A model generated the notes under the pieces. It was not told where the DNA came from. It made no database searches and saw nothing but the letters and a program-made list of their open reading frames with translations. A program made the position numbers and the translations under genes. A DNA stretch of 64,000 nucleotides from Alphaproteobacteria bacterium UBA830 (lineage in GTDB: Bacteria; Pseudomonadota; Alphaproteobacteria; MPNO01; UBA830). Numbering within the stretch: position 1 is the stretch's first letter; every line of letters begins with the position of its first letter. The DNA is taken from positions 12,139-76,138 of the forward strand of contig CAJIYX010000052.1 of NCBI GenBank assembly GCA_905181725.1, in the 5' to 3' direction. Of the stretch, positions 1,895-47,253 are shown piece after piece.

Positions 1895-2001
1895 GCAGTG
1901 GCGCTATCCGAAAAGGTTGGAACAAACCTCTGCCACCCATTCTGAGTTCCGCTACAGTTATGAAAGGCCCAACAGAGGCTCATGACCGGGAGGAAGATCG
2001 G

Positions 2002-3696
2002 ATGACGGACCTCACGCAGAGTTATGCCAGCGGCACATCCGATGTGCCGTTGATCGGGGCGACCATCGGCGCGCAGTTCGATACGGCGGTGGCGCGCTGG
2101 CGCGCGCGAGATGCGCTGATTGTCCGCCAGCAGGATATCCGGTGGTGATGGCTGGACCTGAAGGAACGGGTCGATGCCTTTGCCGCCGGGCTGATGGATA
2201 TCGGGCTCGACCCCGGCAGCCGCATCGGCATCTGGGCGCCCAATCGCACCGAATGGACGATCACGCAGTTCGCGACTGCCAAGGCCGGGTTGATCCTGGT
2301 GAATATCAATCCCGCCTACCGGCTGGCAGAGCTGGAATACGCGCTGAACAAGGTCGGCTGCACAGCGCTGGTGACGGCGGCGGCCTTCAAGACTAGCGAT
2401 TATCTCGGCATGATCCGCGACCTGGCGCCGGAACTTGATACGGCAACGCCCGGTGAACTTCAAGCCGTGCGGCTGCCCGATCTGCGGCATGTTATTCAGG
2501 TCGGCGGCGGCGATGTGCCGGGCACCTGGGCCTTCGAAGATATTCTAGTGCACGGCAAGGCGGCGGGGCAGGCGGCAGTCGAGGCGCTCGCCCCCAGCCT
2601 GCAGTTCGACGATCCGATCAACATCCAGTTCACTAGCGGCACCACAGGCTCGCCCAAGGGGGCGACGCTTACCCATCACAATATTCTCAATAACGGCTTC
2701 TTTGTCGGCCGCGCCCAAGCACTGGGTGAGGACGACCGGATTTGTATCCCGGTGCCGCTTTATCACTGTTTCGGCATGGTGATGGGAAATCTGGCCTCGG
2801 TCACCCACGGGGCGGCGATGGTCTATCCCGGAGAAGGGTTTGACCCGCTGGCCACGCTTGAGGCGGTCGCCGCCGAGAAATGCACGGCGCTCTATGGCGT
2901 GCCGACTATGTTTATTGCGCAGTTGCAGCACCCGGATTTTGCCAATTTTGACCTGTCGAGCCTGCGCACCGGCATCATGGCGGGTTCACCCTGCCCGGTG
3001 GAGGTGATGAAACAGGTCATCGACAACATGCATATGGACGATGTCACGATTGCCTATGGCATGACCGAAACTAGCCCGGTCTCAACCCAAACCTCGGTGG
3101 ACGACCAGGTCGAGCGGCGGGTATCGACCATCGGGCGCATTCAGCCGCATCTCGAAGTAAAAATAATCGATGGCGATCGACGCATTGTCGCCCCGGGCGT
3201 GACGGGGGAGCTCTGCACCCGGGGCTATTCAGTGATGCGCGGCTACTGGGATGAAGCCGACCGCACGGCGGAGGCAATCGATGCCGGAAAATGGATGCAT
3301 ACCGGCGATCTCGCGACCATGGATGGGGCGGGGTATTTCAATATCGTCGGGCGGATCAAGGATATGGTCATCCGCGGCGGCGAGAACCTGTATCTGCGTG
3401 AAATCGAGGAATTTCTCTATCGTCATCCCAAGATCGCCGATGTCCAGATCTTCGGCATCCCGGATGAGCGCTATGGTGAGGAGCTCTGCGCCTGGATAAA
3501 ACTTGCCGAGGGCGAGGCCGCGTTGGCCGATGAAATCACCGGATTCTGTGAAGGCCAGGTCGCCCATCAGAAGGTGCCGCGCTATATCCGCTTCGTCGAC
3601 GAATTTCCCATGACGGTTACCGGAAAAATCCAGATATTCGTCATGCGTGACCAGATGATCGAAGAACTGGGGCTGAAAGCGGCTAAAACCGCCTGA
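2002..3696 (+). pseudogene. AMP-dependent synthetase/ligase (acyl-CoA synthetase) interrupted by in-frame TGA at 2146-2148
   Basis: After RBS GGGAGGAAG, ATG at 2002 gives MTDLTQSYASGTSDVPLIG...ALIVRQQDIRW, then TGA, then in the same frame [20 protein letters not shown]... continuing into the 500-aa ORF. The AMP-binding motif [18 protein letters not shown] is present. An ORF starting at 2194 would lack the conserved N-terminal ~65 residues. Confidence 0.7.
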
Positions 3697-16555: not shown

Positions 16556-16879
16556 ATGCAGTATATCGCCCTGATTTATAAAGATGAGGCCATCCCGGTG
16601 GATATGGGGCCGATGATGTAGGCCTATGGCGCCTTCAATCAGGAACTTGTCGCGTCCGGCAGTTTTGTCGCCGGCGACGCGCTTCAAGCGGTGGCAACAT
16701 CGACCAGCGTACGCGTTCGCGCCGGCAAGACGGAGGTAACCGACGGCCCCCTCGCCGAAACCAAGGAACAACTCGGCGGCTACTATCTGATGGAATGCGA
16801 AAATCTCGACCAAGCGGTCGAATGGGCGGCCAAGATCCCGACCGCGCAGACCGGAACGATCGAGTCCGTCCCATCATGA
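16556..16879 (+). pseudogene. YciI-like (DGPF domain) protein interrupted by in-frame TAG at 16619-16621
   Basis: MQYIALIYKDEAIPVDMGPMM, TAG, then AYGAFNQELVASGSFVAGDALQ...TDGPLAETKEQLGGYYLMECENLDQAVEWAAKIP, all in one frame. Confidence 0.7.
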
Positions 16880-16882
16880 CAT

Positions 16883-18202
16883 ATGACCTCTGAGCCGATC
16901 ACAGAGCATTCTGTCGATACATATCTGACCGGTATCTTCCGTGAAGATGCCGGCCGGGTGCTGTCTGCGCTGATCGCGCAGCTGCGGGATTTCGATCTTG
17001 CAGAAGACGCGCTGCAGGATGCGGTCTCCGCCGCGCTGACCGCGTGGCGTCGGGACGGGTTGCCCGTTAACAGGGCCGCCTGGTTACTCACGGCAGCGCG
17101 GCGAAAGGCAATCGACCGGCTGCGCCGCAATGCCGTGCGCGACGCACCCCAGAATGTTTAGGCGATCGTCGACGAGCTGGAGTAATCCGTGGCCGAACCA
17201 GAAGCCGACCAGGAAATTCCCGATGAACGCCTCCGGCTGATTTTTACCTACTGTAATCCAGCGCTCAATCAGGCGGCACAGGTAGCACTCACGCTGCGGA
17301 CCCTGTGCGGCCTGTCGACGCGTGAAATTGCGCGGGCGTTTCTGGTGCCGGAACCGGCGATGGCCCAACGGCTGGTCCGGGCAAAGGGCAAGATCAGCAA
17401 AGCCGGGATCCCTTATAAGGTCCCCTAGGCACCGCAGCTGGCGGAACGCCTGCACGCCGTTCTGGCGACCGTCTATCTGATCTTCAATGAAGGCTACGCG
17501 GCGACGGACGGGGATAGTCCCGTCAGGGCGGATCTGTGCGAGGAAGCTATCCGCCTTGGTCGACTGCTTGTGCGACTGGCGCCGGAGGCCGAAGTGGGCG
17601 GCCTGCTGGCCCTGATGCTGTTGCACGATTCCCGCCGCACCGCCTGTCACAGCACCGAAGGCGAAATGATCGCCCTGGATGCGCAGGATCGCCGGCTCTG
17701 GAACGAATCCAGGATTGTGGAAGGGACCCATCTGCTTCGTGCGTCGCTCGGGCGGAACCGGCCCGGGCCCTATCAGGTGCAGGCTGCCATGAGCGCCTTG
17801 CATGCGGAAGCCGCCACGTTCGCCGAAACCGACTGGCCCCAGATCGCGGGACTCTACGCCGCGCTCGAACAAATGACGCCGTCCCCTGTCGTGACCCTGA
17901 ACCGAGCGGTTACCGTATCGCATTGCGGTTCCGTGGAAGAGGCATTGCAGATACTGGACTCTGTCGCGGAAGCACTTGCAGGCTATCAGCCTTTGTTGGC
18001 GGCAAGGGCGGATTTTCTGAGGCGGCTTGGCCGGGACGGGCCAGCGCAGAGCAGAGCAGAGCAGAGCAGAGCAGAGCAGAGCAGAGCAGAGCAGAGCAGA
18101 GCAGAGCAGAGGGCCTATCGCGCGGCGCTGGAACTGACGACGAATGCAGCGGAAAGAGGGTTCCTCGAGAAACAGCTCAAGACGCTGCGGCCGGGAGATT
18201 AA
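16883..18202 (+). pseudogene. RNA polymerase sigma-70 factor (ECF-like, DUF6596-type, SigJ-like) with three in-frame stops (TAG 17159, TAA 17183, TAG 17426)
   Basis: The three track ORFs (16883.., 17189.., 17570..) share one frame and together read region 2, ...DERLRLIFTYCNPAL..., ...VLATVYLIFNEGYAA..., and a C-terminal ...AYRAALELTTNAAERGFLEKQL typical of this family, which commonly neighbours YciI-like genes. Confidence 0.7.
18046..18110. repeat. pentanucleotide microsatellite (GCAGA)13 inside the sigma-factor coding region
   Basis: gcagagcaga... encodes (AEQSR)n on the + strand and (LLCSA)n on the antisense ORF. Confidence 0.95.
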
Positions 18203-38137: not shown

Positions 38138-38327
38138 CGTCGGCAGAATGGGGAGAGCCTATTCGCGGGTTCTGATCTGCCTAGACCGGGAAAAGGTTCA
38201 TCCCGAAGATGTTTTCGTGCACATACAGCAAGGCGAGGTAAAGCACCGTGGCGAGAACGACCCGCCACCAGCCGACATCGCGCATCACCAGTGACCGACG
38301 GTCTTGGAGTATCGCCTTGAACGGTGT

Positions 38328-38874
38328 TCAGCAGGTGCCGTCCTCGAAGGCCCGCCAGGCCTCATCAGCATTGGCGCGCCGGAGGGCGTCGATATGGACC
38401 ATGCCGAATGTCGAGAGCAACCAGAAACCGCCGAAAAACAGGATGGCGTCGATGTCGCCGCCGACAAACAGATGCGTGTCGGCCCAAAGTGCGAAGGCGG
38501 CCAGCATCGGATGGCGGACGATTGCGTAGATGCCTTTGCCGGGCGCTACCTCATGTGCAGCGCATCCATGCCGATCAGTTTCGGGTTCGGGTCGTGACGC
38601 TGCACAGAAAAAAGAAAATCGCGAAATACATCACAATCAGAATGACGTGCGGTCCGAACAGCCCGACATCGCAGACCCGCTGATACGAGGCTGCGTTATA
38701 GGCGCCGATCATCCAGACGAGCGCCGCGATCATCAGGACCGAATAAATCGCCCGGAAAGGTCCTTCGCCGATCACACCGGCAATGGAACTGCGGATCGCT
38801 CCCGATGACAGGATAAAATGTCCACCGGTAAAGGCGAGCGCAGAGAGCAGTAGGGGCAGGAAAGCAGCGCACAT
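38328..38874 (-). pseudogene. NnrU family membrane protein with frameshift in an A6/T6 homopolymer (~38605-38610)
   Basis: N-part MCAAFLPLLLSALAFTGGHFILSS... ends at 38575. An adjacent frame continues ...HEVAPGKGIYAIVRHPMLAAFALWADTHLFVGG... (NnrU C-terminal motifs) to TGA at 38328. Deleting one T of the T6 run restores a single ORF. Confidence 0.5.
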
Positions 38875-40634: not shown

Positions 40635-40710
40635 GGGGGTGTAGCTCAGTTGGGAGAGCGATACGTTCGCAACGTATAGGTCAGCGGTTCGATTCCGCTC
40701 ATCTCCACCA
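40635..40710 (+). tRNA. tRNA-Ala (anticodon CGC)
   Basis: 76 nt cloverleaf: acceptor GGGGGTG/CATCTCC with G3:U70, D-arm GCTC-AGTTGGGA-GAGC, anticodon loop TTCGCAA, T-arm AGCGG-TTCGATT-CCGCT, encoded CCA. Confidence 0.85.
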
Positions 40711-40895
40711 CTTTTTGTCGTCCGAACACCCTGTGAAACTCATATATTTTAGTTTCACAGGGTGTTTCATACCTCTTTTAATATCCTCTGATATTATCAG
40801 TCAAAACGTTCACACCATTCACATGAGACTGAAACCCCATCGATTCGGTGGGGTTTTGTCATGTCCGACACTCTGAGGTCACATGGATGACCTCC

Positions 40896-41129
40896 CTGTT
40901 TGACGTACCCGTTAAGTGAGCAAAGGTCGGTGAGTTTGAGACAAACCTTCGCAAAGAGAGACAGATGGAAGGAATACAGAAGGCGAAGGAAAAGGGTGTT
41001 TATAAAGGACGCAAACCCTCCGTGAATGTGGAGCAGGTCAAGGAACTGCGTGATAGTTGAATGGGTGAGTCAGCAATAGCGCAGGAGATGGGAATAGGCA
41101 GAGCGAGTGTCTATCGGACACTTGGTTAG
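40896..41129 (+). pseudogene. serine recombinase (resolvase/invertase) C-terminal remnant with two in-frame TGA
   Basis: FDVPVK, TGA, then AKVGEFETNLRKERQMEGIQKAKEKGVYKGRKPSVNVEQVKELRDS, TGA, then the HTH MGESAIAQEMGIGRASVYRTLG. No N-terminal catalytic domain. Low-GC context. Confidence 0.55.
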
Positions 41130-41337
41130 GTTCTACTGAGCACCCTTTGTATTTCTTACGGACACATTCACGAGCGAGTTTCTGTGCGGCAGAGAGGTCG
41201 GCAAGTGGTGTCCATTCACGCAGAGCAGTCGCGTAGTCACTACCTTGAGCAGCAGTTAGACCCTTTTGGTAATCAGCAGAAAATACAGAGTTCTCCACCA
41301 AGACGGTGAAGAGTAGGACAGGAAAGATGAGTAATCA
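41038..41337 (-). pseudogene. Sel1-repeat secreted protein fragment (in-frame TGA in the signal peptide, truncated)
   Basis: MN, TGA, then LLIFPVLLFTVLVENSVFSADYQKGLTAAQGSDYATALREWTPLAD... Sel1 motif, then divergence. Confidence 0.35.
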
Positions 41338-41694
41338 GTTCATCTGGGGATGATTGGACGGATGTTCTGGGATGGGCAAGGTGGAATGGGGCGTGGGTGG
41401 TTCTGGGAACCCAGCGCATCGGTCCATCAGGCAAAGGGACGCAAACCCTCTGAGGGTACGCACCCCCTGCTGACCGTCCAGTTACAGGTCGTAAAACGTT
41501 ATTGGATATCGAGTGGCGCTACTTAATTCCCAAGTCCCAGCGAGTTTTGAAACTGTTGCCCGCCTGCCAAGCGCCAAGAGCATCATTGTCTTGGCATGGG
41601 TGAGGGCAAGGAAGAAAGCAGATATCGGTGATCTGCGCCATAGCATCTCGTTTGAAATCGTCGCTAAAATTACCTTTACCCATGACGGCCTCGC

Positions 41695-42090
41695 TTATTG
41701 CCTAACAATAAATTTGTCAGAGAGTAATTTTCGCTTGTCTACGCTGACTTCAACCGACCAACTCCCCTTCAGAGCCTTTACGCTTGCCCATGTTCTCCAA
41801 TGCATTGGACTCTCAACTGGCTGTTTAATACAGGAATATTGAACTTCATTGCGGTCAAAGCAGAAACGGACGTAATGCACAGGCGTAGTGCAACTTAGCT
41901 TAATAAAAGTGAATATGCGTTTGTCGTTCTGCGTAAAGACGGTACGCAAATCTATTGGTACTCTATCTTTAACGGTTCGAGAAATTTGCCAGTTGGTAAC
42001 CAAGCAATCGTTAGCCATGGCTTCTTCGCTTATCAACAAGGTGCCGAGGACTAATCCCACAGCAACTTTACTTAGAAATTTCCAACGCAA
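41695..42090 (-). CDS. DUF2914-like secreted protein (low-GC, probably horizontally acquired)
   Basis: Signal peptide MRWKFLSKVAVGLVLGTLLISEEAMA, then a pattern resembling DUF2914 (...VDRVPIDL...F.F...H.W...W.VEV.D). Confidence 0.4.
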   Translation of the reverse strand: MRWKFLSKVAVGLVLGTLLISEEAMANDCLVTNWQISRTVKDRVPIDLRTVFTQNDKRIFTFIKLSCTTPVHYVRFCFDRNEVQYSCIKQPVESPMHWRTWASVKALKGSWSVEVSVDKRKLLSDKFIVRQ

Positions 42091-42470
42091 TTAATATCGT
42101 CCCCACAAATGAAAGAGTGCCTTGATTTTTTGATGGCCTCCTCCGGAGGCCTGAATTTAAAAATCTATCGACATGCTCGGAGAATTTTTGCATCACAGAA
42201 AGCGGATGTCTAGCCTTGTCTAACGTCAGCATCGGCTTGTCGTCCTGTGGAAGACCTTTTCCGTTAGCGTACATCTCACCCAGATTGGATTGGGCAGCGG
42301 CATACCCCTGTTCGGCAAGGGGTGTCCATTTACGCAGAACGGTTGCGGGGTCACCATCCTCGTATGCAGTAACACCCTTGTGGTAATCAGCACTCCACGA
42401 CACCCCAGCACTTCCAAGAAGTACGGCGATCGTCAGGCAGATGGTGCCGGTCAGTTTTCTCAGGCGGGAA
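42068..42470 (-). pseudogene. Sel1-repeat secreted protein fragment (no ATG; one repeat then truncated)
   Basis: ...LRKLTGTICLTIAVLLGSAGVSWSADYHKGVTAYEDGDPATVLRKWTPLAEQGYAAAQSNLGEMYANGKGLPQDD, then non-Sel1 sequence. Paralogous to 41038-41337. Confidence 0.35.
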
Positions 42471-42645
42471 CTCTGACAGAGTATGTCTGAATAGCCCCTA
42501 GATTAGTAGACGCCTTCGTCCCTAAATTTGATGCCAGGAGGTCATGATGGGCAAAGGTGATTTCAGCGACGATTTCAAGCGAGACGCTGTGGTGCAGATC
42601 GATGATCTGATAACGCTGCCAAGTAGGTTTTCCAACGAACTACCC

Positions 42646-43491
42646 TTACGATTGACCACCGCTGCAATTGATCACATCTCCGGTCACGAAGCTTGCGTCA
42701 TCCGATGCCAGAAAGGCGACGGCGGCGGCATGTTCGTCGGGCACCCCACGGCGGTGCAGCGATTGCTGAGAGCGAATGTCGGCAACCATTTCCTGGCGAA
42801 ATTCTTCGGCCTGTTCCTGTTCGAGGCCTTCGGCCATGACACCGGCACCAAGAAACTGCCGCGGCGTTATCCGGTCGGGAATGTCCGTGCCACCCGGCGA
42901 CAGCGTATTCACCCGAATACCATACCGCCCATATTCCATGGCCAGTACCTTGCCGAGCGCCAGAATGCCGCCTTTGCTCGACGCATAAGGTGCCCGATAA
43001 AGCCCGCGCACCGACTGCGAGCCTATATTTATGATCGAGCCTGCTTGCTGTTCCATCATGATCGGCAATACGGCCCGGCAACCCCAGAGGGTCGGCAGCA
43101 GGGAACGCTCGAGTTCCAGCTTTACCTCTTCTTCGGTATACAGATGAAAGGGCTTCATCCAGATCGTACCGCCAACATTGTTGACGAGCACGTCGATCTG
43201 GCCGAACGCCTTCATCGCCAGGTCCATCATCTCCTCGGCACCCGAAAATGTGCTCAGATCGACGAGCGCCTTGATGGCGCCAACACCGTGCTCAGTCAGT
43301 TCGTCGGTTGTCTGGGTGGCGCCTTCATCGACCCGGTCCGCGACGACAATCTTGCCGCCTTCCTGACCCAGCCGCCGGGCAATTGCCCGCCCAATGCCCT
43401 GCCCGGCGCCGGTGACGATACAGACCTTGTTCTTTAACCGGCGTGCACCGGCAGCTCTTGGATCGAGTTCATCAGCCAAATTCAGCTCCAT
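42646..43491 (-). CDS. SDR family oxidoreductase (cis-diol dehydrogenase BenD/CmtB-like)
   Basis: KVCIVTGAGQGIGRAIA, catalytic YASSKGG. Confidence 0.8.
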   Translation of the reverse strand: MELNLADELDPRAAGARRLKNKVCIVTGAGQGIGRAIARRLGQEGGKIVVADRVDEGATQTTDELTEHGVGAIKALVDLSTFSGAEEMMDLAMKAFGQIDVLVNNVGGTIWMKPFHLYTEEEVKLELERSLLPTLWGCRAVLPIMMEQQAGSIINIGSQSVRGLYRAPYASSKGGILALGKVLAMEYGRYGIRVNTLSPGGTDIPDRITPRQFLGAGVMAEGLEQEQAEEFRQEMVADIRSQQSLHRRGVPDEHAAAVAFLASDDASFVTGDVINCSGGQS

Positions 43492-43554
43492 TGGTAGCGC
43501 GCCGCTGAAACCCCAAGGATGAGCGGGGCTGAGCGATGCTGTTATCCGCCCAGA

Positions 43555-44922
43555 TCAGATCGATATATGGGCGACGCCCTTCCTGACCTTCATTGGGTCT
43601 CCCGGGGCCTCGTTGAAAGGTATCTCACGGGGCAGCTCGAACGAGGCGGAGCGTACCGCCTGCGAGGCTTCATCCAGGCCGGGCGGCGGTTTTCCCGTTT
43701 CCAGGTCGCGGGCGGCATCGTGCAACTGGTGTCGCGCCATGAAGATGGCCTTGTCGGTCATGACCAGGTTCTCTCCGGTGCGGTCCTGAACGGTGCCCAT
43801 GCTTTCCTGCAGGGATGCGTCCTGCATCGCGATGCCTTTGACACCACTGAATGATGTCCGTGCCTTCTGCGCTTCACGGTCCATCATATAGTCGTTGTCC
43901 CTGTTCATCACCGGTCGGAACGTCCCTGGAATCAGCTCGACATGAAGGCTGCCACCGTCGCGCATAACGCCGAGTTCCAGATCATTCAGCGGACGCGATG
44001 GGTGATACGAAAAGGTCCAGGCAAAGCAGTTCTCATCGTCGATCGGCACCCAGGCATGACCGTGCAGCGGGTTGTCACCATAAGGCGGCACGATCGTATA
44101 CCAGGGCATGATCCACGGTGTGACCCGCCAGTAGTAATTCTCGTTTCCGGCATTGCGCCGTACGCCGATGTTCAGACCACCCTGCGATTCGACGATTTCG
44201 AATTTTGGCGCCAGGTCGGCGAGGTGATAGTCAGATCCCTTTGATCCGTGGTGCAGGGGATCGCTCCGAAGCTCCCCGCTATGTAGGAAGGCGACGTGGC
44301 TCGAATCAATCCCGCCTTCCAGTGCCTGCAGATAATTGCATTCCTCGAGGCGTTTCGAATGGAAACGCTGGTTCGCGGGCACTGTGGCCCATTCGAATGC
44401 CGGCGGTGTCGGCTGTTCTTCGGGCGGGCCCATATAGGTCCAGATGATGCCACCCCGCTCGACACATGGATAGGATGTCAGCGCGATTTCCGCACAGAAA
44501 CGGCTCTCCGGGGGCTCTGACGGGATTTCCGTACACTGGCCGGCGACGTCGTATTTCCAGCCGTGGTAGGGACAACGGATGCCGCCCTCTTCATTGCGGC
44601 CGAACCACAACGAAATGCGGCGGTGGGCGCAGAACTCTTCGATCAGTCCCAGCTTGCCATCGCTGTCGCGAAAGGCCAGCAACTGTTCGGACAGCAATTT
44701 GACGCGGACAGGCGCGCAATCCTTCTCGGCCACCTCGTGGGAGAGCAGGAACGGTATCCAGTAACGGCGGAACAGGTTGCCGGTCGGGGTGCCGGGACCG
44801 GTTTCGGTAACCAGTTTGTTCCTGTCATGTGTCAGCACGTGTTTCTCATTCCCCCGCGCACCGCGCGGCTCATTTGCATCGCCTCCGGATCGTCGCCGGG
44901 TCGGCATATTATAGAGCGACAT
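43555..44922 (-). CDS. Rieske non-heme iron oxygenase alpha subunit (VanA/GbcA-like single-component terminal oxygenase)
   Basis: Rieske CAHRRISLWFGRNEEGGIRCPYHGWKYD plus C-terminal mononuclear-iron domain. No beta subunit or reductase nearby. Confidence 0.8.
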   Translation of the reverse strand: MSLYNMPTRRRSGGDANEPRGARGNEKHVLTHDRNKLVTETGPGTPTGNLFRRYWIPFLLSHEVAEKDCAPVRVKLLSEQLLAFRDSDGKLGLIEEFCAHRRISLWFGRNEEGGIRCPYHGWKYDVAGQCTEIPSEPPESRFCAEIALTSYPCVERGGIIWTYMGPPEEQPTPPAFEWATVPANQRFHSKRLEECNYLQALEGGIDSSHVAFLHSGELRSDPLHHGSKGSDYHLADLAPKFEIVESQGGLNIGVRRNAGNENYYWRVTPWIMPWYTIVPPYGDNPLHGHAWVPIDDENCFAWTFSYHPSRPLNDLELGVMRDGGSLHVELIPGTFRPVMNRDNDYMMDREAQKARTSFSGVKGIAMQDASLQESMGTVQDRTGENLVMTDKAIFMARHQLHDAARDLETGKPPPGLDEASQAVRSASFELPREIPFNEAPGDPMKVRKGVAHISI

Positions 44923-45169
44923 GACAAGGTCGGCTATTCTGATTAGCTGAAATGTTCGGCAGATTTCACTCGTGCAACACACGATGTCCGGCAGCCTCGG
45001 AAGTCAGCGCGGCACCAGCAATGAGATATCGCCCTGCTCTCACCATAGCGAAAAGTCGGAAAGAACCGCGCGGGCTCCTCGGTCGAGAGTAATTGTCGGG
45101 AGCGGGTTCCGCGTTATCTGAAATCGGGGACCGGATTCGTCTTAGCCTGATGTCACTGTGACGCCGCTA

Positions 45170-45632
45170 TTACGGGCTCTGCCAACTCGTGGGTATCGCT
45201 GCTATGACAATCGAGTAATCGGTTGCACTCGAACTCAATTCGGTTTCTCCGAACGCGGGCGGATTGAAACTCGCCATGGCATTTCGCAGGGCTTCGACAT
45301 TTTCTGCGGCAAGCGTGTAGCCGTTACCGTCGTCCAGATCGAGCCGGTTGGATGTCCCGCTATACCATTCATCAACGGTAACGCTGTCGGTCGTCCCTAT
45401 TACGGATACCTCCAGATCATTCCCGACCTGTCGGAACCAGAGTTGATCGTCGTCGATGGTCGACCCGAAAAGAACGAGGCCCATCAGCGCAAGATTGACG
45501 GCCCCGACGAGCAGTTCGAGTGTCTGGACGCCGTAAAATACGGTGCCGAAGTTTCCGCTATCTGCCAGATGTGCCAGGAATACGGCTGAGGGTACCAAGA
45601 CGATTAGTACGTTTCCGACGATCAGCGGCATG
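45170..45632 (-). CDS. hypothetical membrane-anchored protein
   Basis: MPLIVGNVLIVLVPSAVFLAHL... then a soluble domain. No family recognised. Confidence 0.35.
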
Positions 45633-45732
45633 CGTTTTTCTTGGCCGAAATCCGTGGGTCGGCCCAGCCTTTGCCGAGCGACATGCCTGTCGCTCCGATC
45701 ATGATCAGGCAAGAAATCAGGACAATTATCTA

Positions 45733-45867
45733 CTATAAAATGGCGTTTTCGACCGCAGCGATATCGGCGTGGCTGCCCAAGGTTTCCGATATGAGCGTGG
45801 ACAGCCAGAACGTCAGAATCGTCAGGAAAGCGATGATGCCGGCGATTGCATGAATACGGATCTTAAT
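45733..45867 (-). CDS. small hydrophobic peptide (45 aa) ending in tandem stops TAG-TAG
   Basis: MIKIRIHAIAGIIAFLTILTFWLSTLISETLGSHADIAAVENAIL, GGAAGG ~10 nt upstream. Confidence 0.3.
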   Translation of the reverse strand: MKIRIHAIAGIIAFLTILTFWLSTLISETLGSHADIAAVENAIL

Positions 45868-45871
45868 CATT

Positions 45872-46312
45872 TCATTTGCCTTCCATGGGGGAGGGGCGCG
45901 CGTCCAGATAGTCCCTACAGAGCGCGTCCAGCGCCTCGAGAAGCGTAAATGCTTCGCGCAACTGGGCGGGCGGTAGTCCGGCAAAGGCTTTGTTGGCCCA
46001 TTGCGCGTATACCTTGTCCGCCTGGTGGTAGGTTTTCTCACCCGCCAAGGTCAGGCGTATGAGCTTCGCACGTTTGTGGTGGGGGTTATCGTCAAAGATG
46101 ATGAGATCTGCGGTGTTGAGATCGTTCGCGACCCGCTGTACAGCCTGACGCGACAGTCCTAGATTTCGGGCGATCTGGGGGACGGTAACATCGCTCTCCG
46201 ACAGTACAATAGATCCCATGACCTGCCAGCGCGCACTTGTCAGATTGAATGGCTGAACCATGCGATCACCAAGTGCAATCAGGTGGCCGTGGAGCCGGAA
46301 CGTGGCGGACAT
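45872..46312 (-). CDS. MarR family transcriptional regulator
   Basis: wHTH ...SARWQVMGSIVLSESDVTVPQIARNLGLSRQAVQRVANDL.... Confidence 0.75.
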   Translation of the reverse strand: MSATFRLHGHLIALGDRMVQPFNLTSARWQVMGSIVLSESDVTVPQIARNLGLSRQAVQRVANDLNTADLIIFDDNPHHKRAKLIRLTLAGEKTYHQADKVYAQWANKAFAGLPPAQLREAFTLLEALDALCRDYLDARPSPMEGK

Positions 46313-46440
46313 CGTGTCGGTTGCGGCGGTGGCCTGGGGACTGAGTTCGGATGTTTTAATGAGGCCCTCTTCTGACAATTGATTGCGATAATGACAATAT
46401 ATTGTCGAATCAGATTTATTCAACTCTTCAAAATATTTTG

Positions 46441-46472
46441 GACAAAAAAGGGGCGGATCAAAGATCCGCCCC
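46441..46472 (-). terminator. rho-independent terminator-like hairpin downstream of the peroxiredoxin gene
   Basis: GGGGCGGATC-aaa-GATCCGCCCC perfect 10-bp stem followed on the minus strand by TTTTTTGTC. Confidence 0.7.
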
Positions 46473-46496
46473 AGAGTACTATATTGCCGATTTCCG

Positions 46497-46949
46497 CTAT
46501 TTCATGCCGTCCAGATCGGCGATGATTTCGGCGGGGTGATCCGCCGGTTTTACCGCGTCGTAGGATGCAACGACCTTGCCGTCGGGGCCGATCAGCACCG
46601 ACTTGCGGGGCGAACGGGGGCTGTCTGGCTCCGATACGCCAAAGGCGACTGATACCGCACCGTCCTCGTCGCTCACGAGGTCATAGGGAAAATAGAATTT
46701 TTCACGGAACGCACCATTATCGGCCGGGCTGTCATAGCTGACGCCGAGGATGGAAGCGTTACGGTCTTCAAAGTCCTGGATTCGATCACGGAACCCGTTG
46801 CCTTCGATCGTTCAGCCAGGTGTGTCGGCTTTTGGGTACCACCAGAGCAAGACGTAGCGGCCGGTGAAGTCGTCTTTCTTCACCGCAGCGCCGTCCTGGT
46901 TCGGGAGGCTGAAATCGGGCGCGTCAACGCCGGCGGCAATCAATGCCAT
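46497..46949 (-). CDS. Bcp-type 1-Cys peroxiredoxin with TGA at the peroxidatic Cys codon (46812-46814): selenoprotein candidate or nonsense pseudogene
   Basis: Not in the ORF track. GGAG RBS, ATG 46949. MALIAAGVDAPDFSLPNQDGAAVKKDDFTGRYVLLWWYPKADTPG, TGA, then TIEGNGFRDRIQDFEDRNASILGVSYDSPADNGAFREKFYFPYDLVSDEDGAVSVAFGV...IIADLDGMK, stop TAG. The TGA sits exactly where the Prx T-P-G-C-T motif has Cys. Confidence 0.6.
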
Positions 46950-47063
46950 TCAGGTTTCTCCATCGGTTAGGGTTTACGGGATGAGCCTATCATCTGCCCG
47001 CGGAGTCCGGAATGCAGTCATAAAAAAAACCCGGTGACAGGCACCGGGTTTTTTGTGGGTCGT

Positions 47064-47253
47064 AAATCAGAGGTTAGACAAAATCGGGTTCGCTGCGTTT
47101 CCGGCAGCGCAGGCACAAACGATTATGCCATCCCTCGCTTGCAAATTTTTCACTGCATGACATGCATTTGCGGTCGATCGGAACGTCCGTGGCCGCGCGG
47201 TGGTCCAAGACAATTTCTTCAGCATCCAATGAACCGGTGTTCGATTCGCTCAT
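47064..47253 (-). CDS. small zinc-ribbon protein (CxxC...CxxC), 59 aa
   Basis: Strong RBS AAGAGGGAG. MSESNTGSLDAEEIVLDHRAATDVPIDRKCMSCSEKFASEGWHNRLCLRCRKRSEPDFV. Not in the ORF track. Confidence 0.5.

Follow-up and report, generated by a model that had tools for sequence, protein, structure and literature searches.

The UGA at codon 46 (positions 46812..46814, minus strand) of a BCP-type peroxiredoxin (Prx) gene in the window, i.e. the whole 64-kb stretch of DNA analysed, very probably encodes selenocysteine (Sec), which would be inserted as the peroxidatic residue in a SelB- and SECIS-dependent manner. The headline reading of the initial annotation, i.e. that the gene encodes a selenoprotein, is upheld by the presence of TGA at the homologous codon in all 80 of the relatives listed, by selection on the sequence downstream of it, and by a constrained hairpin with compensatory changes.

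The Prx gene (46497..46949) lies on the minus strand, a strand assignment that had not been given previously. By translation it begins with an ATG at 46949..46947 and comprises 150 codons, including the UGA for the putative Sec46, followed by a TAG stop at 46499..46497. The lone in-frame TGA (46814..46812) is codon 46, after which the frame stays open to the TAG; the translation reads MALIAAGVDAPDFSLPNQDGAAVKKDDFTGRYVLLWWYPKADTPG before the TGA and TIEGNGFRDRIQDF...DLDGMK after it, the immediate surroundings being ...WWYPKADTPG, the TGA and then TIEGNGFRDRIQDF.... The active site motif, P39-K-A-D-T43-P-G-U46-T, matches PxxxTxxC(U), and the predicted catalytic Arg, R115, shows conservation of at least 90% and corresponds in the alignment to the Arg of 5enu and 5iph. 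With Cys substituted at the TGA codon, a Pfam search of the protein returned AhpC-TSA (PF00578; E=8.9e-30, 103.6 bits versus a cut-off of 26) over residues 7-128, a match that spans the TGA, together with Redoxin (E=6.9e-16). The closest PDB chains are all BCP/PrxQ proteins (best E=1e-18), in which the stretch YPKDNTPGCTTEG aligns on YPKADTPG[U]TIEG of the window protein, with the catalytic Arg being aligned too. Translation, Pfam and the PDB alignment thus confirm what had been proposed for this gene, i.e. a Bcp-type Prx with TGA at the peroxidatic Cys codon and a frame open to TAG. With respect to subfamily, the protein scores 103.2 bits against the 140-bit cut-off of the NCBIfam Bcp equivalog (NF006960) and 95.8 bits against the 260-bit cut-off of NCBIfam PrxQ (NF053650); both scores lie below the cut-offs, and the accurate label would therefore be BCP-type Sec-peroxiredoxin, rather than an equivalog of E. 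coli Bcp.

A Shine-Dalgarno-like GGAG (46958..46961, minus strand), as read from the sequence, is located 8 nt upstream of the ATG and is a candidate for the corresponding signal. At the other end of the gene, a consensus scan identified an intrinsic terminator-like hairpin (46450..46472, minus strand), which has a 10-bp stem with 8 G-C pairs and precedes a T-run. Since this hairpin starts 25 nt after the TAG, the Prx gene appears to be the last of its transcription unit, and to be monocistronic; by the same type of scan the upstream gene also carries a terminator-like hairpin, at 47042..47029.

Relatives were obtained by scanning one genome for each species, from which 80 loci are listed and 162 further matched loci were left out. 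Those listed derive almost entirely from marine alphaproteobacterial MAGs, with Prx identities of 60-97%. As to whether the Sec or the Cys form is the norm among orthologs, a comparison raised at the outset, TGA is found at the homologous codon in 80 of the 80 matches listed, in addition to the window, and Cys is found at the codon-46 position in more distant homologs (P0017, P0065, P0088, P0106 and P0111), as well as in BCPs in the PDB. Across the 80 listed sequences the synonymous sites of Prx are saturated and the amino acids are conserved, on the 5' side of the TGA as well as far beyond it. Comparison of the window gene with its eight closest relatives among the matches listed, by the Nei-Gojobori method, gave dN/dS values of 0.04-0.11 for the entire gene and of 0.06-0.17 for codons 47-150. 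Relative to the nearest listed relative (L001), there are 24 synonymous and 4 non-synonymous differences (dS ~0.28), with 14 synonymous and 4 non-synonymous differences lying past the UGA. In each half of the gene the reading frame scores as coding, the other frames giving negative scores, and no extra stops or frameshifts were found in the window copy. On this comparative evidence, purifying selection evidently acts on the part of the protein encoded past the UGA.

The candidate SECIS element lies within the coding sequence at 46768..46807 (minus strand, as are all its parts), and its assignment is based on covariation, RNAalifold, synonymous constraint and the criteria for bacterial SECIS (bSECIS) elements. 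It is composed of a lower stem, UCGAAG/CUUUGA (46807..46802 / 46773..46768), an upper stem, GGGUUC/GAAUCC, with one G.U pair (46796..46791 / 46783..46778), and an apical loop, CGUGAUC (46790..46784). The spacer between the UGA and the stem is 15 nt, with the stem opening at the 16th nt; the hairpin, including its 6 bp with a G.U pair and the lower stem beneath, is as the initial annotation described. By themselves, the 73 nt that follow the UGA fold no better than chance (z=+1.67 versus shuffles), and Rfam applied at the gathering threshold to the entire window returned only the tRNA-Ala, with no SECIS family match. Because the single-sequence fold is no better than that of shuffled sequences, the significance of the hairpin is to be sought solely in the cross-species comparison.

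That comparison is informative. In the 80-sequence alignment, which contains 78 distinct sequences, the upper-stem pairs are standard in 100% of cells, including where both partners have changed: pair 23/39 is altered from G-C to A-U in one relative (L035) and pair 25/37 from U-A to C-G in two others (L019 and L054), the latter entailing F-to-L and I-to-A substitutions in the protein. The G.U pair of the upper stem is replaced by A-U in 14 sequences and by G-C in 2. Loop positions 2-5 (G, U, G, A) are invariant across the species listed, and RNAalifold run on the listed relatives recovers the same hairpin together with a 4-bp lower stem. At the nucleotide level, codons +6 to +11 past the UGA hardly vary among the 80 listed sequences: Arg is encoded by CGT in 80/80, even with six codons possible, Phe by TTC in 78/78, Asp by GAT in 77/80 and Ile by ATC in 77/78, with Gly being only GGG or GGA and the second Arg only CGA or AGA. 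The normalised synonymous entropy of the hairpin codons is 0.16, compared with 0.81 for 43 other conserved codons (p=5.7e-5, Mann-Whitney). The result is a rigid consensus among the listed relatives, GGR UUC CGU GAY MGA AUC C, positioned 15 nt past the UGA, and the hairpin is, as judged from these substitution patterns, under selection at the RNA level.

The bSECIS model, as summarised in a 2026 review (PMC13188914), has a loop of 3-9 nt, an upper stem of 4-16 bp, a UGA-loop spacing of 16-37 nt and a minimum free energy (MFE) of -7.5 kcal/mol or lower, with G at one of the first two loop positions and usually G or U next to it on the 3' side (Fig. 2A of PMC13188914). The window element has a loop of 7 nt starting C-G-U, a stem of 6 bp, a UGA-loop spacing of 21 nt and an MFE of -11.0 kcal/mol, and hence conforms to all the published bSECIS criteria of that review. 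The likeness to a bacterial SECIS that had been suggested is thus borne out, including by the covariation and the synonymous constraint. The window element shares with the consensus model an in-ORF stem-loop directly 3' of the UGA, but differs from it in that no Rfam family matches; binding of SelB to it is putative.

Two relatives with Cys in place of Sec bear on the hairpin. The Cys form L086 (57% identity), which served as a negative control, has GGT TTC CGG GAT CGG TCC in this region, with which the hairpin cannot form. The Cys form L085 (TGC, 62% identity), present on one 590-nt contig, keeps the hairpin intact, apparently having exchanged Sec for Cys only recently, with its SECIS left as a fossil.

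With respect to the machinery for Sec insertion, the initial annotation was correct in stating that none is encoded in the window: we found no selA, selB or selD in the 64 kb, and its tRNA genes comprise tRNA-Ala only, with no tRNA-Sec. Searches with E. coli SelA, SelB and SelD by tblastn against the window and ~1.2 Mb of sequence flanking the 80 listed loci gave only a generic GTPase-domain match, in L014, and in 79 of the 80 listed relatives the flanks contain neither selA, selB or selD nor tRNA-Sec. In L030 a tRNA-Sec with anticodon UCA is encoded 3 kb from the Prx ortholog, as identified by ARAGORN and by Rfam (RF01852, 79 bits versus a gathering score of 47). The window locus is also present in ENA ERZ1699356 and in the NCBI MAG GCA_054189545.1, on 24-kb and 4-kb contigs. 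Two codon-usage screens revealed no other selenoprotein genes in the window, although these screens are insensitive, with Prx itself being rejected by the second filter because its SECIS codons are atypical.

The lack of this machinery in the window is pertinent to an alternative, according to which Prx is an ancestral Sec gene that is now dead in this genome, the lineage having lost selA/B/C/D such that the mRNA is untranslatable beyond codon 45. The presence of several pseudogenes in the same 64 kb is in keeping with such a loss, as is the apparent Sec-to-Cys switch with a kept hairpin in L085, which shows that lineages do abandon Sec. We consider this scenario improbable, nevertheless, given that the window gene and its SECIS do not depart from the clade consensus at any constrained position, that the differences from L001 are 24 synonymous versus 4 non-synonymous, and that the gene has acquired neither extra stops nor frameshifts, whereas loss of Sec decoding normally leads to rapid decay or to conversion to Cys.

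Three other genes in the window do contain in-frame stops. An AMP-binding acyl-CoA synthetase gene is interrupted within its Pfam domain by a TGA at 2146, the aligned residue in PDB homologs being Ala or Thr; the gene for an ECF sigma factor (Sigma70_r2, r4_2, DUF6596) has TAG at 17159, TAA at 17183 and TAG at 17426, with no frameshift; and an NnrU gene reduced to its C-terminal half has a TGA at 38330 where L002, L006 and L008 have Arg. The NnrU TGA is private to the window, as would be the pattern of a true nonsense mutation. Because at least three window genes have true in-frame stops, this lineage does undergo gene decay. The description of the window as rich in nonsense mutations therefore holds for these three genes, but not for the rest of it, which is densely tiled with intact long ORFs.

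These stops, together with the lack of Sec machinery in the window, are what might be cited in favour of Prx being an ordinary Cys-peroxiredoxin inactivated by a recent TGC-to-TGA nonsense mutation, which had been regarded as equally possible. That parity is unsupported, because the TGA is ancestral and present in all 80 of the listed clade members, i.e. it is not private to the window but is shared with relatives down to 60% identity. Further, the low downstream dN/dS and the covarying SECIS are incompatible with an untranslated 3' remnant, there is no second lesion in the gene, and an assembly artefact that creates the TGA is implausible across 80 independent MAGs and Sanger reads of 2005-2008. 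We thus regard a recent nonsense mutation as very improbable indeed. The comparison is of some general use, since a recoded UGA is shared by relatives and nonsense mutations are private, which provides a way to separate the two on one contig.

Decoding of the UGA as an amino acid other than Sec, i.e. as Trp (genetic code 4) or by near-cognate read-through, is barely conceivable: several of the ~30 database homologs that have been given W at this codon likewise extend past the TGA at their own end (...DGMSWQLES), indicative of a wrong code on short contigs, TGA terminates 23 of the 45 window ORFs of at least 250 aa in a genome of ~59% G+C, Trp as the peroxidatic residue would abolish catalysis, and the conserved hairpin fits a SelB-dependent SECIS in a clade in which tRNA-Sec exists. 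A global reassignment of TGA was likewise considered and rejected, TGA being the commonest stop of the long window ORFs.

A protein search reveals how genes of this type are represented in public databases. The ~30 'full-length' homologs with W at the active-site position have 57-82% identity, and many homologs from long contigs are C-terminal fragments of 83-103 aa; in ENA ERZ1699356 the gene is called as two fragments, of 45 aa and 59 aa. The false W at the Sec position bears the mark of gene callers having applied genetic code 4 to short contigs. The main value of the present work may therefore be with respect to annotation, since public calls either split Prx or put a false Trp at its active site; the SECIS consensus GGR UUC CGU GAY MGA AUC C would give a simple and specific rule with which to rescue miscalled genes.

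On Sec insertion, the preferred reading, the UGA at codon 46 of the Prx mRNA would not be taken as a stop; the mRNA hairpin 15 nt past it would act as a bacterial SECIS, to which SelB carrying Sec-tRNA(Sec) would bind, so delivering Sec to the UGA. The predicted product is a 150-residue protein with a thiol-peroxidase fold, with a peroxidatic selenolate in a P-x-x-x-T-x-x-U pocket that includes Arg115. Sec46 would attack the peroxide, i.e. H2O2 or organic hydroperoxides, to give a selenenic acid intermediate. The recoding steps are supported by the sequence evidence; we infer the action of SelB and tRNA-Sec in the source genome, the incorporation of selenium, the peroxidase activity and the identity of the reductant, with the proposed chemistry and reductant following by analogy from established peroxiredoxin biochemistry.

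Most BCP/PrxQ proteins have a resolving Cys. The window Prx has zero Cys residues by translation, and hence no resolving Cys, i.e. the residue of the atypical 2-Cys mechanism, which is optional in the subfamily; among the Sec forms (the 80 matches listed) there is no conserved Cys position. Since a conserved Cys is lacking from both Prx and its Sec-form orthologs, recycling would have to involve an external thiol reductant of the thioredoxin, glutaredoxin or glutathione type, in a '1-Sec' mechanism.

The genes adjacent to Prx were analysed in the listed relatives. The upstream block (def, RmuC, MFS, HbpS-like, a 59-aa CxxC...CxxC protein and Prx) is kept in the 13-20 closest listed loci. Downstream of Prx, the genes for MarR, a haemolysin-type Ca-binding-related protein and a Rieske oxygenase are common to only 0-6 listed loci. 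A tRNA-Ala(CGC) gene is located 5.8 kb downstream of Prx in the window and 0.1-10 kb downstream in 13 listed relatives, and the window DNA between Prx and the tRNA-Ala has a G+C content of 0.53-0.56 versus ~0.60; the variable downstream content and the lower G+C thus suggest a variable island between the tRNA-Ala and Prx genes. The downstream MarR regulator was considered as a conserved peroxide-sensing partner, and rejected as it is present in only 1 of the 80 listed relatives.

The 59-aa CxxC...CxxC protein, for which there is no Pfam family, is encoded ~125 nt upstream of Prx in the 20 closest listed relatives. As a universal partner it was rejected, since it is found only in those 20 and its gene is separated from Prx by a terminator-like hairpin. 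A more ambitious proposal is that the alphaproteobacterial BCP clade is an obligate '1-Sec' peroxiredoxin, the selenenic acid of which is recycled by a dedicated partner, e.g. the upstream 59-aa protein. Its basis is that Sec is present in 80/80 listed species in proteins without a resolving Cys, with the SECIS constraining the GFRDRIQ protein sequence; we see it as unlikely, with a small chance of being correct. If it were true, an obligate 1-Sec Prx with a dedicated partner would be a peroxidase system that has so far had no biochemical description.

Comparison with known systems places the window protein with respect to both its fold and its family. The BCP/PrxQ structures, including those of Xanthomonas campestris BCP (3gkk/5iiz) and a Burkholderia protein (5enu), match it with E=1e-18 to 1e-15, with YPKDxTPGCTxEG and the catalytic Arg aligning; these proteins have a peroxidatic Cys, whereas the window protein has a predicted Sec and is without any Cys. 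PrxU (NF040737), an experimentally characterised Sec-Prx that is listed as Prx, PF00578, TxxU in PMC13188914, shares the Sec in a PxxxTxxU motif of an AhpC/TSA-fold peroxidase; it belongs, however, to a different Prx subfamily, with the window protein scoring 44.3 bits against a 270-bit cut-off on its 233-position profile, and the two are not orthologs. The Prx-like 1/2/3 proteins of the Global Ocean Sampling (GOS) study are thioredoxin-fold marine selenoproteins that share the pfam00578-type similarity but carry UxxC, in contrast to the TPGU-TIE sequence of the window protein, which is of the TxxU type with no Cys at +3. The 'Prx-like' label that had been applied to the window gene is accordingly not the precise family.

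The closest known system is the Sec-peroxiredoxin of marine bacteria (Prx; COG1225/Bcp, pfam00578, TxxU), which was described from the Sargasso Sea in 2005 by Zhang, Fomenko & Gladyshev (PMC1088965) and again in the GOS selenoproteome in 2008 by Zhang & Gladyshev (PMC2398784). AACY01451564, AACY01271188 and JCVI_READ_1000727, from the supplements to these papers, belong to the same subclade as the window protein, with the sequence ...RYVLLWWYPKADTPGUTIEGNGFRDRIQDFEDRNASI..., and JCVI_READ_1000727 is 87% identical to the window Prx across all 150 residues. The Sec-Prx family of the window gene is therefore already known and, the family having been published in 2005-2008, the finding made for the window is correct but not new; the initial annotation was right about the abundance of Sec-Prx forms among marine bacteria. 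The results confirm the wide distribution of Bcp-type peroxiredoxins with Sec among marine Alphaproteobacteria. Nothing essential differs between the window copy and the marine Sec-Prx reported in 2005 and 2008, except that it lies on a 64-kb contig on which the genomic context is visible. What is added to the read-level catalogues is the presence of TGA in 80/80 of the listed relatives, the covariation in the putative SECIS, and the apparent fossil SECIS in a Cys form.

A homolog of the Sec-peroxiredoxin (Prx) that encodes Cys (TGC) at the Sec position (protein P0017; 62% identity) is present at positions 120-572 of an ENA contig (ERZ27300294 k119_170300; locus L085), where, despite the TGC codon, the SECIS hairpin is intact (GGGUUC CGUGAUA GAAUCC). 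This locus comes from a single 590-nt contig, and its combination of TGC with a hairpin is possibly a sequencing or assembly variant, but it looks like a recent Sec-to-Cys conversion in which a fossil SECIS element has been retained. Errors in the annotation of the Sec-Prx family are systematic, both among database homologs (P0001-P0057) and in the ENA contig identical to the window (L083, 12513-12965). Because genetic code 4 was chosen, calls on short contigs place Trp at the Sec position and continue past their terminal TGA; on long contigs the gene is called in pieces, with 45 aa at the N-terminal end and C-terminal fragments of 59-103 aa.

Within the window, the Prx TGA could be contrasted with the in-frame TGA (38330..38328) of an NnrU-family remnant (38181-38507, minus strand). 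The NnrU remnant is a genuine pseudogene: its Pfam match is confined to the C-terminal half (profile positions 104-187 of 188), the upstream part of its frame has many stops throughout, and three related loci (L002, L006 and L008) encode Arg at the site of the TGA. The in-frame TGA at 2146 (codon 63) of an AMP-binding acyl-CoA synthetase (1960-3696, plus strand), which is located within the Pfam AMP-binding match, looks like a nonsense mutation, because PDB homologs have Ala or Thr, not Cys, at this position. The pattern of decay is odd in an ECF-type sigma factor gene (Sigma70_r2, Sigma70_r4_2, DUF6596; 16880-~18150, plus strand), whose frame of ~420 codons is continuous except for three in-frame stop codons (17159 TAG, 17183 TAA and 17426 TAG), i.e. 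three nonsense changes with neither indel nor frameshift. The sigma factor C terminus has a tandem repeat of a 5-residue unit (RAEQS, four copies), and a partial YCII-domain ORF (16691-16879) adjoins the gene.

Approximately 125 nt upstream of Prx, with a terminator-like hairpin in between, is a gene for an apparently zinc-ribbon-like 59-aa CxxC...CxxC (CMSC...CLRC) protein (47074-47253, minus strand), which matches no Pfam family. Its conservation is strong, with a near-invariant C-terminal SEGWHNRLCLRCRKRSEPDFV, and among the matches listed is limited to the 20 closest relatives. On the other side of Prx, the stretch from tRNA-Ala(CGC) (40635-40710) to the Prx stop (40635-46497) has a GC content of 0.53-0.56, compared with ~0.60, and encodes MarR, an HCBP-related protein, a Rieske oxygenase and an SDR. 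In relatives, the tRNA is downstream of Prx at a widely varying distance (0.1-10 kb); this shifting spacing, together with the finding that genes of the stretch are common to only 0-6 of 80 loci among the matches listed, suggests a variable island adjoining the tRNA-Ala gene. Another lower-GC stretch (56-60 kb, GC 0.548) contains a 51-aa Phage_integrase fragment, called in the identical ENA contig (L083 2241-2396, i.e. window ~57.07-57.22 kb), which may be a mobile-element remnant.

A tRNA-Sec (UCA) gene was located in one related locus (L030, JAQCKY010000096.1; 6110-6200, minus strand), ~3 kb from the Sec-Prx ortholog. It stands alone, with no adjoining selB detected by tblastn; according to a 2026 review (PMC13188914), selC lies within selB or overlaps it in some Alphaproteobacteria.
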